Program-made: the position numbers and the translations under genes
Notes under the pieces: generated by a model
Database searches by the model: none
Told to the model about the DNA's origin: nothing
Seen by the model: the letters and a program-made list of their open reading frames with translations, nothing else
Source of the DNA: Candidatus Bathyarchaeota archaeon
GTDB taxonomy: Archaea > Thermoproteota > Bathyarchaeia > TCS64
Reading direction: 5' to 3'
DNA: 30,618 nucleotides
Assembly: GCA_030670015.1 (NCBI GenBank)
Contig: DAOVCM010000001.1
Location: forward strand, 1-30,618
In this document: positions 405 to 30,358 of the stretch, piece by piece
Position numbering within the stretch: position 1 is the first letter of the stretch
Layout: each line of letters begins with the position of its first letter

Positions 405-483
405 GGGGTCGTGGTCCAGCTTGGTCTAAGATTCGCGGCTCGGGTCCGCGAGATCCCCGGTTCGAATCCGGGCGACCCCACCA
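405..483 (+). tRNA. tRNA-Pro (anticodon CGG), intronless, CCA encoded
   Basis: Acceptor stem GGGGTCG/CGACCCC, anticodon stem CGCGG/CCGCG with loop CT-CGG-GT, T-arm CCCGG-TTCGAAT-CCGGG, discriminator A followed by CCA. Confidence 0.95.
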
Positions 484-15754: not shown

Positions 15755-16576
15755 TCAAGTAACCGAACTAAGTCTTAAGATTAGTGGAAGCTGCCTTTTA
15801 TGTTTGTTAGCTCTGACACGCCCCAATATTCTCTGAACTAAAAGAGGCGAAACATCTAAACTCTCCGCTATTTTGTTCTCAGGTAATCCCTTCTCATATC
15901 CATATAGGATCAAATCTATGATGTCGTACGAGCTCCCCAGCTCCTCCTCGTCGGATTGCCCAATCCATAATCCTGCCGTCGGCGTTTTTTTGATGATTTT
16001 TTCAGGAATATTCAACTGCCTCGCAAGCTGTCGTACCTGGTTTTTATACAAGTCTACCATGGGCAAAAGGTCGACTGCGCCATCGCCATATTTAGTGAAA
16101 TATCCTGTTAACCACTCTGTTTTATTGGTACTGCCGATAACCATTCTATTCATAATGTTAGCATAGTGATAAGCAACGATCATTCTAGTCCTCGCTTTCA
16201 TGTTACCAGAAGAAACCATATCGTTGGGGTTATAGAGCGGTAGAACTCTTTTCATCAACTGAACCAAGGACGTGATATCAATGATATCACATGTTACATC
16301 TAACATATCTGTCAGCTGCATCACGTCTGTGATGTCACTCTCAGGTGTGATGTCACGCTCTGGCATGGTTATGGTTCTTACTTTTTTTGATTTCAACGCC
16401 TTGACTGTAAGAGCGAGAACAACGGCTGAATCTACTCCCCCGCTCACAGATACAATAGCGCCGTTAAGACCTGAGATCTCTACTTGTGACCGAATGAAAA
16501 AGGATATTTCCTCTATTACTTTAGGAGCGTCGAGTGTTAAAAACTCTGTAGATAACATACTTATTTTCAATAACAT
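15755..16576 (-). CDS. nadE: NH3-dependent NAD+ synthetase
   Basis: SGGVDSAV, GNMKARTRM, GSTNKTE, GYFTKYGDG, DLYKNQV, PTAGLW and HKR. Start at ATG 16576 or 16558; the ORF track extends to 16648. Confidence 0.93.
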   Translation of the reverse strand: MLLKISMLSTEFLTLDAPKVIEEISFFIRSQVEISGLNGAIVSVSGGVDSAVVLALTVKALKSKKVRTITMPERDITPESDITDVMQLTDMLDVTCDIIDITSLVQLMKRVLPLYNPNDMVSSGNMKARTRMIVAYHYANIMNRMVIGSTNKTEWLTGYFTKYGDGAVDLLPMVDLYKNQVRQLARQLNIPEKIIKKTPTAGLWIGQSDEEELGSSYDIIDLILYGYEKGLPENKIAESLDVSPLLVQRILGRVRANKHKRQLPLILRLSSVT

Positions 16577-16781
16577 TCTGTAGTTTAAGCGTTTTTCTTC
16601 ATGAAATATTACATATATCATTAAATATTTAATCAATAATACATACAAGTTTTAATAAATATGAATAGATACACTATGAATGTAAATGAAGTTGTATCAA
16701 AAAAGTTATCTCACACCGTATACAATTTTGTCTACGGTAACATAACGTGTTCAATAAAATGATATTCAGGAAAGTGAGTCT

Positions 16782-17243
16782 GTGTTGAATGAAAATAATC
16801 TACAAAATCTAGTTAACCGGTCATTTAAAGACCCAATTGCAGCAATATTACTTAAGAACAGTAATTTTACGACCGTTCAATATGAATGTCTTATTATTAA
16901 CTATATAATAGATAATTACTCTGATAAAGAGATTACTTATAATAAAAAGGCGTTATATAGGTCTAAAAAAGTAAGTAGGGGTTCATTTAGCCGTACTTTA
17001 TCTCAGGCAAAGAGGAATATAATTTCATCTATATACACAATATTACTTTTAACGTATATAGGAATCTTCGATACTGTCCCCTTTGATGAATATAAAAATC
17101 TAGCTGAAAAACTGAGTGAATATCTTGATCTGATTCAAAGTTCAGATACAACGCAAGCAAGACATTTTTTACGGCGTATAGAAAAGGAATTGATAGAAGG
17201 AATCCGTATTCTTGCAGAGACTCGAAGCTTAAAAAACGTGTGA
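16782..17243 (+). CDS. Conserved archaeal hypothetical protein with HTH-like segment
   Basis: KVSRGSFSRTLSQAKRNIISSIYTILLL resembles an HTH recognition helix followed by a long helix. Its stop codon lies inside the first TGTGATATCACA box. Confidence 0.65.
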   Translation: MLNENNLQNLVNRSFKDPIAAILLKNSNFTTVQYECLIINYIIDNYSDKEITYNKKALYRSKKVSRGSFSRTLSQAKRNIISSIYTILLLTYIGIFDTVPFDEYKNLAEKLSEYLDLIQSSDTTQARHFLRRIEKELIEGIRILAETRSLKNV

Positions 17244-17260
17244 TATCACATAAAATCACA
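17239..17260. repeat. Palindrome box 1 (TGTGATATCACA plus phased half-site TAAAATCACA)
   Basis: Perfect 12-bp palindrome at 17239-17250. The 22-mer is a 21/22 inverted copy of 17780-17801. Confidence 0.9.
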
Positions 17261-17779
17261 AAATAAAGAAGAAGTTTTTAGGTTAAGAGGTAACATTTCG
17301 GTAGGAGAGTATCTTTCATTTATACAAACTTTCATTAATTTGTAAAATACAAAATACGATCACAGTTATTAGTGCATCCATATCAGTAAAACGGGATTTA
17401 AAAATTAACATAGTATCGTAATTAATTTTCGAAGTTTCTCTATTATTTTTCTAATTTCTAATAACGCTTTGTTTCAAGCTAAAAATCGATATAGTTCATA
17501 TAACATACTATATTTATATTTCATCATATAATAGGATATATTTATAGTTTTAAAGATAAAATATTAATTATTATGGGATAAAAGATAAAGAAAATAAAAT
17601 TCTCAATTAATAATCATCGTCAAAAAATACATAATCACCTATCCTCTCAGACCAACTCTTAACAAAGTTGATCAATGTTAAAAAACATAAATATTTTATC
17701 TTACAAAATGTTGTAACCAAATAATACTTTAGTAGATTTATAAGAAATAATAATTATCCTTTTTCAGAGTCATTATTGA

Positions 17780-17801
17780 TGTGATTATATGTGATATCAC
17801 A
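17780..17801. repeat. Palindrome box 2 (TGTGATTATA plus TGTGATATCACA)
   Basis: Perfect 12-bp palindrome at 17790-17801, with a half-site 10 bp upstream. Confidence 0.9.
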
Positions 17802-18089
17802 ACCTTAAATGTCTGAGATTTTTCAATCAGTGTGGTTATAGGTATTCATACTAAATAATCAAGATACAAAAATTATCCAAGATTCTAAATAAACGCAAAT
17901 GGCTCTTCTCTTAAGAGATAGTAATAATCGAAAATAGGGTATATTTATTTAAAATATCCTTTTATTTTCCTTATTATATATTATCTAAAACATACCTATA
18001 CATATCTAGTCAAGGATTTTTGGTTCTCCCTTAGAGAGCATATGAACCGAATGGTTGATTGTGGAATAGCTCCTTAGATATTCTTTTCA

Positions 18090-18172
18090 TGTGATTTTCC
18101 CCGTTCATCTGTGATATCACGTGGGTTAACAGAGGTCACAGCTTATCACATTGGAGTTACATGTGATATTAC
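18090..18172. repeat. Palindrome box cluster 3
   Basis: TGTGATTTT (18090), TGTGATATCAC (18110-18120), TCACA ending at 18140 and 18150, TTACA ending at 18161, and TGTGATATTAC (18162-18172). Confidence 0.85.
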
Positions 18173-18535
18173 GGATCCTAAACCTGCTTGAATAAGGGGA
18201 TATTTTATAATGCGAGGTCTAAAATGTCGTTGAAGTATTGAATCGTAAAATAGTCGAATTTTAATCATACATTTGTTATTAATAACTCAGTTATTCACCA
18301 AGTATATTTTTCTAAAAAAAACGATTCATACACAAATAACACAATGTTATATAACTTAATTAAAGATCATAGAAGAGAATAATTGTAAAAACCATGAAAG
18401 TCATGCTCTAAGGACTAGCTAAACCCAAATAAAAAAAGGTGCAAAGTCTATCTTGGGAACTCTCAAAAAAGGAAACAATAAAATAGTTAAAATAAAATAA
18501 TATTTAGTAGGAACATTAGTATATGGTGAGGGGTT

Positions 18536-29116: not shown

Positions 29117-30358
29117 CTATTCGAGGCTGATCGTACCGTATTTATCGTAGTATTCTACCCAGAGGCGTCTCATCTCATCGTCGAGACTACCTTTGATAAG
29201 GTCGAAAATTGTCTTGATATTCTCGATGGAGAACACCTTGAGTCCTAGCTCATCCTCTAGGTATTCGACGGGGCCACGTTTCGCGATGTTCTCGGCGTCT
29301 CCCATCCTCTCCTGCCTGTCAACGGCTATGACGAGGCCGACAACTTGGTGTTTCCCCAACAAATGCAGTTTCTCTATGGTCTCCACCTTAGTAGAGCCCG
29401 TTGTTATTGTGTCGTCGACAACGAGGATTCTCTGTCCCTGTTTGAAGTATCCTGCGCCCACGATGACCCGGTCGGCGGAGATGTCGCCGTAGGCTTTCTC
29501 CTCCTTCCTGTCGTACATGTACCGCTTGTCCATTCCGTAGAGTTCTTTCAACCCCTCGCAGGTGAGGGTGGCCAGGCTGATGCCCTTGTAGCTGGGGCCG
29601 AAGATGTAGTCAAAGTCCTCGATGGCTCCCTGCTCCATCAAGAGCGCGATGTAGCTGGCGAAGGCCCACTTGAGGCTCGTGAGTGACTCGCCGTCCGTCA
29701 GGGCGCCGAGGTTGACGAAGTAGGGGGAAGGGCGTCCGCTCTTCAGGATGAAGGGCTCCTCGGGGCTCGGAGGCAGACGCAGCGCTCCCTTTTTGATAAG
29801 GGTGTCGAGGAAGACCTGCTCGATCTTCTCCTTTGATACGAGACCACCTCCCTCCAAGGTGAAGGCGTCGCTGTTGATGTATTCGAGGATGGATCCGTAG
29901 TAGAGGATTGAGCCGCAGTAGGTGCAGTGTAGCTTGAGGGCTTCAACGTTGATCCCCCCCTCGACGTTGAACTGGCCTCTAGGCGGTGTGTATTTTGAGT
30001 TTGTGGGGCAGAGGGGGTTGGGGCATTTGAAGATCCCCTCTATTAGTATGGGCAGCTGGACGAGGCGTTTTTCCTTCACGCCCCAGTTCTCGACGATGTT
30101 CAGTGTCGCAGAGGGGGCGACGAAGGCGATGAGGTCGATCTCCTTGGAGGTGAGGTAGGTCCCCTCTATTTTAATGAGGTCCTTGGTGTTGAGACTCTTA
30201 CTGTCGACGTTCTGGGCTATCAGCGTCCTCGCTGTAGGGTCGAGTTTTAGAAGCCGGAGGACGAGGAAGGCCTTTCCAGCGGGGATATGGTCAATAACGA
30301 TGCCGTTCTCGATCTTGCTCACGAGCAGTTGCTTCTCCGACAAATTATACTCCTTCAT
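29117..30358 (-). CDS. Fusion of aspartate carbamoyltransferase regulatory chain (PyrI) and orotate phosphoribosyltransferase (PyrE)
   Basis: N-terminal part: LLVSKIENGIVIDHIPAG, KDLIKIE, APSATLNIV, CPNPLCPTN...CTYC. C-terminal part: FILKSGRPSPYFVN, FGPSYKGI, DRKEEKAYGD, VVDDTITTGS. One uninterrupted frame. Confidence 0.9.
   Translation of the reverse strand: MKEYNLSEKQLLVSKIENGIVIDHIPAGKAFLVLRLLKLDPTARTLIAQNVDSKSLNTKDLIKIEGTYLTSKEIDLIAFVAPSATLNIVENWGVKEKRLVQLPILIEGIFKCPNPLCPTNSKYTPPRGQFNVEGGINVEALKLHCTYCGSILYYGSILEYINSDAFTLEGGGLVSKEKIEQVFLDTLIKKGALRLPPSPEEPFILKSGRPSPYFVNLGALTDGESLTSLKWAFASYIALLMEQGAIEDFDYIFGPSYKGISLATLTCEGLKELYGMDKRYMYDRKEEKAYGDISADRVIVGAGYFKQGQRILVVDDTITTGSTKVETIEKLHLLGKHQVVGLVIAVDRQERMGDAENIAKRGPVEYLEDELGLKVFSIENIKTIFDLIKGSLDDEMRRLWVEYYDKYGTISLE

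Follow-up and report, generated by a model that had tools for sequence, protein, structure and literature searches.

The regulatory chain PyrI and its enzyme, aspartate carbamoyltransferase (ATCase), form the textbook model of allostery, and to our knowledge PyrI has only ever been seen serving the catalytic chain PyrB. What, then, does PyrI do when it is welded to a different enzyme of the pathway, in organisms where this is often the sole PyrI left? The question is raised by a 30,618-nucleotide stretch of DNA (hereafter the window) from an uncultured sediment archaeon of Candidatus Bathyarchaeota, which is the whole of contig C91 of a metagenome-assembled genome (MAG; 1.34 Mb, 262 contigs, 78% complete). 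One gene of the window encodes PyrI and orotate phosphoribosyltransferase (OPRT, PyrE) as a single polypeptide. We propose that its product is a bifunctional protein, being at once an active OPRT and a working ATCase regulatory chain that probably still docks on PyrB, and we would give this proposal as a whole about an even chance of being correct.

Analysis of the translated gene confirmed that the PyrI allosteric domain, the four-Cys zinc domain and a complete OPRT stand in one frame (Table 1). In the public record the window's own protein is 408 residues long. When profiles were searched against the genome, PF01948 scored 102.2 bits at identical coordinates; the cysteines of the zinc domain are C112, C117, C145 and C148, and the Pfam Pribosyltran match spans residues 247-363 of the fusion protein. 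PyrI, PyrI_C and Pribosyltran, the three families proposed in the initial annotation, were all found by Pfam, and its description of a complete PyrI joined in frame via a short linker (...FTLEGGGLVS...) to a complete PyrE was borne out by the Pfam and NCBIfam matches and by the single open reading frame (ORF). Among the NCBIfam models, ATCase_reg matched residues 9-152, and the pyrE model TIGR00336 matched residues 201-378 with 105.3 bits (hmmscan) and 107.6 bits (genome search) against a cut-off of 106.8. The PyrI equivalog level of NF002063 was missed, with 95.9 bits against a cut-off of 171. Matching PDB sequences were ATCase regulatory chains for the first half (1PG5_B, E 2e-32; 2YWW, 2e-30; E. 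coli, 6e-23) and OPRTs of the long type for the second (3MJD, 2PRY, 1LH0 and 1ORO). An AlphaFold2 model built from a 118-row alignment had a mean predicted local distance difference test score (pLDDT) of 91 and a predicted template modelling score (pTM) of 0.73, its softest part being residues 161-180 with a pLDDT of about 74. By Foldseek, the OPRT half gave template modelling (TM) scores of 0.86 to yeast OPRT and 0.82-0.88 to 2PS1, 1ORO, 1LH0 and 1STO, and the PyrI half gave 0.77-0.81 to the PyrI of Sulfolobus and Methanocaldococcus. Pfam matched neither a carbamoyltransferase domain (OTCace_N/OTCace) nor an orotidine monophosphate (OMP) decarboxylase domain (OMPdecase) in the fusion protein, and NF009916 covered the PyrI part alone.

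Table 1 Features of the window, with positions on the 30,618-nucleotide stretch
Feature	Position	Strand	Remarks
pyrI-pyrE fusion gene	29117..30358	-	single uninterrupted ORF, 413 aa from ATG at 30358; stop at 29117-29119
Alternative TTG start, codon 6	30341..30343	-	yields 408 aa; choice of most gene callers and of most relatives
PyrI allosteric (nucleotide-binding) domain, residues 12-100	30059..30325	-	Pfam PF01948, 98.8 bits against a cut-off of 25, E 2e-28
PyrI zinc domain PyrI_C, residues 106-153	29900..30043	-	Pfam PF02748, 33.9 bits against a cut-off of 23.4
Junction, residues 154-178	29825..29899	-	short helix 154-162, then ...FTLEGGGLVSKE...
OPRT domain, residues 179-413	29120..29824	-	long E. 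coli/yeast type; TIGR00336, PDB matches, Foldseek
tRNA-Pro (CGG)	405-483		only RNA gene detected in the window

A gene of this kind could in principle result from two neighbouring genes joined by a sequencing error at the junction, or from a miscall. The source MAG is indeed fragmented, and unfused neighbouring pyrI and pyrE genes do occur in other Thermoproteota. Against this, the full-length relatives detected in a protein search (401-432 aa, 73-100% identity) come from many samples and fall into more than 120 clusters. When one genome per GTDB species was scanned, 102 relatives were detected, of which about 70 were full length with both halves in one frame; no frameshift or stop was found in these ~70 species. 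Closed genomes and 80 loci of independent assemblies likewise show a continuous frame and an alignable junction, LEGGGLVS being invariant inside the family-level clade and the junction alignable across all lineages. The linker contains no stop, a possibility that the initial annotation had raised: Logan contigs from three runs in two studies cross it without an indel and carry synonymous variants only (29857 A>G, Leu168 TTG>CTG; 29894 T>G, Gly155 GGA>GGC). The fusion is not an artefact, and we regard an erroneous joining as exceedingly improbable. Separately, an apparently broken fusion was seen in three genomes, where frameshifts, assembly errors or real decay may be involved: in G054 (C66 3389-4613) it is split over two overlapping frames, in G123 (C1 284417-285049) the match is confined to the N-terminal half, and in G117 (C45, L036/L118) a TAG lies upstream of the PyrE half.

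The fusion architecture is already present in public databases under inconsistent names, relatives being called either 'aspartate carbamoyltransferase regulatory subunit' or 'orotate phosphoribosyltransferase [Candidatus Bathyarchaeota archaeon]'. No publication on a PyrI-OPRT fusion came up in a full-text literature search that covered such fusions, pyrimidine synthesis in Bathyarchaeota, Caldiarchaeum and the interfaces of ATCase; the initial annotation likewise knew of no characterised example. By record titles, the holders are mostly Candidatus Bathyarchaeota/Bathyarchaeia, together with Candidatus Caldarchaeum (including C. subterraneum), an 'Aigarchaeota' MAG, a Geothermarchaeales MAG and a 'Nitrososphaerales' MAG. 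Genome sampling placed the fusion in the window's family, in two sister families of its order, in another Bathyarchaeia genus, g48, at 52-59% identity, and in two genera of the phylum outside the class Bathyarchaeia. Clustering of 1.8 billion proteins at 50% yielded one other full-length fusion cluster (P0122), the rest being standalone PyrI or PyrE. The fusion is old and conserved in two archaeal classes. Fusion copies 66-79% identical were also seen on three contigs filed under bacterial MAGs (L047, L076 and L098; Patescibacteria, Krumholzibacteriaceae and Desulfaltia), which are probably mis-binned archaeal DNA. An AlphaFold database entry of 404 aa named 'Aspartate carbamoyltransferase regulatory chain' (A0A2R6EXE4) aligned poorly over the whole model (17% identity, root-mean-square deviation 16.9) and may be a different PyrI fusion.

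We then examined copy number. Profile searches of this MAG returned the fusion as its sole PyrI match and as its sole PyrE above or near the cut-off. A phosphoribosyltransferase (PRTase) on contig C23 was considered as a second OPRT and rejected, being a purine-type PRTase and not PyrE. The pyrB gene, which the initial annotation had suggested locating, lies on contig C97, unlinked to the fusion (312 aa; best PDB match P. abyssi ATCase, 1ML4), and pyrD and pyrF also lie on contigs other than that of the fusion (pyrF on C152). Given that pyrB, pyrD and pyrF are all present, the pathway needs the fused OPRT. Across the order, a PyrI match was found in 65 of 79 genomes, nearly always exactly one and within a frame of ~410-450 aa, while PyrB was found in 74 of the 79 and in all 23 high-quality ones, on another contig or hundreds of kb away and never adjacent. 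Nearly all genomes of the order have the fusion as their one PyrI and their one OPRT. The same holds for the closed genome of Ca. Caldarchaeum subterraneum (1,680,938 bp), in which the fusion is the sole PyrI and the sole PyrE-family match and PyrB is ~470 kb away. In the genome of the window (G000) we also observed a third carbamoyltransferase N-terminus, of 97 aa and cut by the contig end (C207, locus L003 3-293, minus strand), in addition to pyrB (C97) and argF (C189, beside argG).

The absence of pyrB from the 260 bases upstream of the fusion, noted at the outset, holds, and it extends to the longer contigs of relatives. In relatives, whose contigs reach 218 kb, a small ORF and a Band_7 gene lie upstream of the fusion and an AhpC/Bcp peroxiredoxin gene lies downstream; the latter also follows the fusion in the window. 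Because these long contigs show neighbours other than pyrB, the missing pyrB is not an effect of the contig end. In an 'Aigarchaeota' MAG the fusion stands between pyrD and a convergent pyrF. The generalisation that pyrI normally follows pyrB proved untrue for this class, where canonical pyrI adjoins pyrB as a divergent neighbour and does not stand after it. One locus from the window's family, L029 (G042:C108 3235-4669), combines the fusion with a co-directional pyrB-pyrI operon ~48% identical to the family PyrB; no native-type pyrB was found in that genome, whose contamination estimate is 4%, and the operon is either a replacement by transfer or contamination.

Both halves retain the residues expected of them. 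In the CTP/ATP pocket, D23, H24, K59, K63, N87 and K97 of the window protein correspond to D19, H20, K56, K60, N84 and K94 of E. coli PyrI and are all present. Fusions and standalone PyrI share the pocket string VKIGVDHIKDKETNxWVK, and the 18 pocket columns are equal in the two groups except in the g48 fusions, which carry K63>A/T, N87>T and K97>E. Across fusions ~50% identical, D23, H24, K59, D60, N114 and the four Cys are invariant, the four Cys being likewise invariant in standalone PyrI. In the OPRT half, the invariant residues are K206, K258, R284, K285, K288, D315, D316 and R348, which we take to be the equivalents of Salmonella OPRT K26, K73, R99, K100, K103, D124, D125 and R156. The PRPP motif and the catalytic motifs agree with those of yeast and Francisella OPRT, with Tyr at the position of His105. 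The fused OPRT is most likely catalytically active, being the sole PyrE-family gene of this MAG and of closed genomes that hold pyrB, pyrD and pyrF.

To place the two halves in their families, a careful maximum likelihood (ML) tree of 66 PyrI domains and a quick PyrE tree were used. In the ML tree all 18 fused PyrI domains formed one clade (ultrafast bootstrap 97/SH-aLRT 82), and canonical Bathyarchaeia PyrI formed a separate one (98/91) that includes the standalone PyrIs of genomes also holding the fusion. By this phylogeny the fused PyrI is a paralogous lineage with a single origin. The quick PyrE tree gave a fused PyrE clade with SH-aLRT 91-93, within which a handful of standalone PyrEs of 240 aa are nested, which implies that the PyrI half was lost secondarily at least twice. 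We suggest that a paralogous PyrI lineage was joined once to a long-type PyrE, that the fusion afterwards reached Bathyarchaeia and Caldarchaeales/Geothermarchaeales by spreading or by inheritance, and that canonical PyrI would have been lost from the genome studied here. Unfused neighbours are found in other Thermoproteota, as pyrB<->pyrF-pyrI-pyrE in G272 and as abutting pyrI and pyrE in G202. Fusion by loss of the stop codon between two such genes was considered and rejected, as their PyrE is of the short archaeal type and distant in the tree; no direct precursor arrangement was found among the neighbourhoods compared.

The architecture, conservation, single origin, sole-copy status and intact ligand and catalytic residues are established by the results above; binding to PyrB is inferred, as would be any nucleotide effect on either activity. 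Specifically, the C-terminal 235 residues would be the organism's only OPRT, acting at step 5 of UMP synthesis, and the N-terminal 155 residues would form the genome's single ATCase regulatory chain, in intact form. This PyrI would still dimerise and dock via its zinc domain on unlinked PyrB trimers, and the product would be a nucleotide-regulated ATCase carrying tethered OPRT dimers. Docking is favoured by the retention of PyrB beside a sole, fused PyrI in more than 60 genomes as well as in the closed genome, and by the retention of the zinc domain. The pocket of fusions that coexist with a canonical PyrI is partly degenerate (g48), and elsewhere the PyrI half has been lost; both would fit an overlapping function of fused and canonical PyrI. 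A further hint comes from the 130s loop of PyrB, in which a Trp is found in most fusion-only lineages, at the position of E. coli N132 in Bathyarchaeia and of S131 in Caldarchaeales, and in 0 of 11 PyrBs having a canonical PyrI or none. In Caldarchaeales and six Bathyarchaeia genera, this Trp accompanies a fusion that is the only PyrI. The N132 residue of the E. coli catalytic chain makes contact with rE142 and rK143 (PMC6981877). The zinc domain of the fusions has G-S where E. coli has these two residues, T/S at 124 where standalone PyrI usually has Glu, and an insert of 3 residues at 134-136 that is absent from most standalone PyrI. The covariation of the PyrB Trp with fused PyrI is a lead, not proof. 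A complex prediction for the MAG's PyrB with residues 1-168 of the fusion scored 0.00, which counts neither for nor against binding.

Several observations weigh against docking on PyrB. The ATCase_reg match scored 130.9 bits, short of the 148.55 trusted cut-off of the equivalog-level model TIGR00240. Linkage of the fusion gene to pyrB was never seen; in Caldarchaeum pyrF lies directly downstream, and the context in Caldarchaeales is one of pyrF/pyrD. The three g48 genomes sampled hold the fusion together with a canonical divergent pyrB<->pyrI pair, G048 holds it with a standalone PyrI, and on a Geothermarchaeales contig a pyrB-pyrI operon converges on the fusion gene, so that calling the fused PyrI 'the' regulatory chain would be too simple. 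Four Bathyarchaeia genomes that are 89-95% complete (G050, G139, G093 and G063; loci L157-L160) have a canonical-looking PyrB and no detectable PyrI. ATCase without a regulatory chain thus seems to exist within the class; PyrI would be dispensable there, and its sole-copy status is no proof of use by ATCase. The fusion-only genera g2 (Gly) and g4/g5 (Leu) have a PyrB lacking the Trp while their zinc C-G-S motif is unchanged, and the zinc domain of Caldarchaeales fusions lacks the conserved C-I-T-N loop. Lastly, at matched allosteric identity the ratio of zinc to allosteric identity ranges over 0.58-0.72 for fusions and 0.69-0.86 for standalone PyrI, which points to somewhat faster evolution of the fused zinc domain but is a small difference between non-independent pairs (the within-family ratio being 0.81-0.83) that is too weak to decide.

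Much of this could be accommodated if PyrI had been repurposed: it would no longer bind PyrB and would act as a nucleotide sensor switching the OPRT of the same protein, giving feedback by CTP, UTP and ATP at step 5, and the ATCase of these archaea would be an unregulated PyrB trimer. The fused PyrI forms a distinct, old paralogue clade, some genomes with the fusion keep canonical PyrI beside pyrB, the surroundings of the gene in Caldarchaeales are pyrF and pyrD and not pyrB, and ATCase lacking PyrI is present in the class. Within the family-level clade the mean pairwise identity is 0.79 for the allosteric domain, 0.79 for the enzyme, 0.69 for the linker and 0.65 for the zinc domain; the pocket for nucleoside triphosphates (NTPs) is strictly conserved, while conservation is lowest in the PyrB-contacting zinc domain, which in Caldarchaeales is also altered. 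The whole-chain pTM also suggests that the halves were not modelled as fully independent. Yet the zinc domain is kept everywhere (four Cys and N114, with the T-N loop in Bathyarchaeia), and the only known job of this domain in PyrI is to hold the catalytic chain. The nested standalone PyrEs moreover show OPRT working without a PyrI module, and we know of no PyrI domain that regulates any enzyme except ATCase. On balance we consider such repurposing unlikely, if still deserving of attention. That a nucleotide at the ATCase-type site would tune OPRT directly, whether or not the protein docks on PyrB at the same time, is a slightly broader idea which we put forward tentatively, judging it somewhat more plausible than repurposing and still short of an even chance. 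Docking of OPRT on the ATCase holoenzyme and NTP-dependent allostery of OPRT are the two mechanisms that the initial annotation had proposed; both stay viable, the genomic pattern leaning, though not compellingly, towards a fused PyrI that still serves ATCase.

The loss of the PyrI half in some lineages, which kept a working PyrE, and the absence of some pocket residues from g48 fusions might also mean that the two halves are not coupled at all. The PyrI half would then be inert or structural, an additional dimerisation handle or a decaying remnant, retained through its attachment to an essential enzyme. Such a remnant is difficult to reconcile with an allosteric domain as conserved as the enzyme domain within the family, with a pocket and zinc ligands that are invariant over lineages ~50% identical, or with ~70 species free of frameshifts and stops, and we consider the absence of coupling decidedly improbable.

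Standalone PyrI (E. coli; S. acidocaldarius, 1PG5 chain B; M. jannaschii, 2YWW) shares with the fusion the two-domain layout, the four-Cys site and the pocket (E 1e-23 to 2e-32), whereas the fusion bears a 235-residue C-terminal enzyme, has no pyrB neighbour, belongs to its own paralogue clade and differs in the zinc insert, in having G/S for E. coli E142/K143 and in its sub-cut-off TIGR00240 score. The OPRT half shares with long-type OPRT (1ORO, 1LH0 and 2PS1) its fold (TM 0.86), 30-35% identity and all the catalytic Lys, Arg and Asp residues, including the equivalent of K103 in the flexible loop, but it carries an N-terminal PyrI module, has Tyr for the loop His105 and has a loop 3 residues longer; most other Thermoproteota have instead the short archaeal PyrE, which is ~30% identical. 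In the PyrB-PyrI fused ATCase of the Thermotoga maritima type (NF009916), PyrI is also covalently joined to a protein of the pyrimidine pathway, but the partner there is the catalytic chain at the PyrI N-terminus, while here it is OPRT at the C-terminus. UMP synthase and the 'reverse' PyrF-PyrE fusions (NF004034) likewise join OPRT to a component of the pathway; there the component is OMP decarboxylase, the next enzyme, whereas here it is the non-catalytic regulatory chain of step 2 and pyrF is separate, standing immediately downstream in Caldarchaeum alone. Inactive dihydroorotase (DHOase)-like chains are reported to hold the catalytic trimers of Pseudomonas aeruginosa ATCase together (PMC7053772), a precedent for trimers held by another pyrimidine-pathway family. 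The partner there is an inactive DHOase homologue and PyrI is absent, while here PyrI comes with a putatively active OPRT and the complex is only proposed.

The remaining genes of the contig are ordinary archaeal core genes, encoding PolD DP1 and DP2, GGGP synthase, CysRS, endonuclease V and an RPA-like OB-fold protein. Apart from the tRNA gene of Table 1, we noted a strongly AT-rich stretch at 16600-18535 (GC 0.20-0.32 against 0.50 for the genome), flanked by the PolD large-subunit region and by a winged helix-turn-helix-like ORF, which is followed by the PolD small subunit. Between 17260 and 18535 there is no ORF of at least 45 aa in any frame and no Rfam or tRNA match. With up to 2 mismatches allowed, the window contains 9 copies of the palindrome TGTGATATCACA, where 1.3 would be expected and none of 100 shuffles gave as many; 7 of the 9 copies lie at 16280-18173. 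A replication origin, or alternatively an array of operators, may be located in this stretch.

For annotation, the consequence is that a gene named for either of its halves causes pathway reconstructions to miss one function or the other. If the fusion docks on PyrB, the ATCase particle would be decorated with OPRT dimers, and the committed step of the pathway would be physically linked to the step that consumes phosphoribosyl pyrophosphate; if it does not dock, a classic regulatory domain would have been recruited to a new target. Should nucleotides indeed tune the OPRT, the textbook regulatory chain of ATCase would for the first time be seen to control a different enzyme or, alternatively, a single nucleotide sensor would for the first time be seen to gate steps 2 and 5 of the pathway in one particle.

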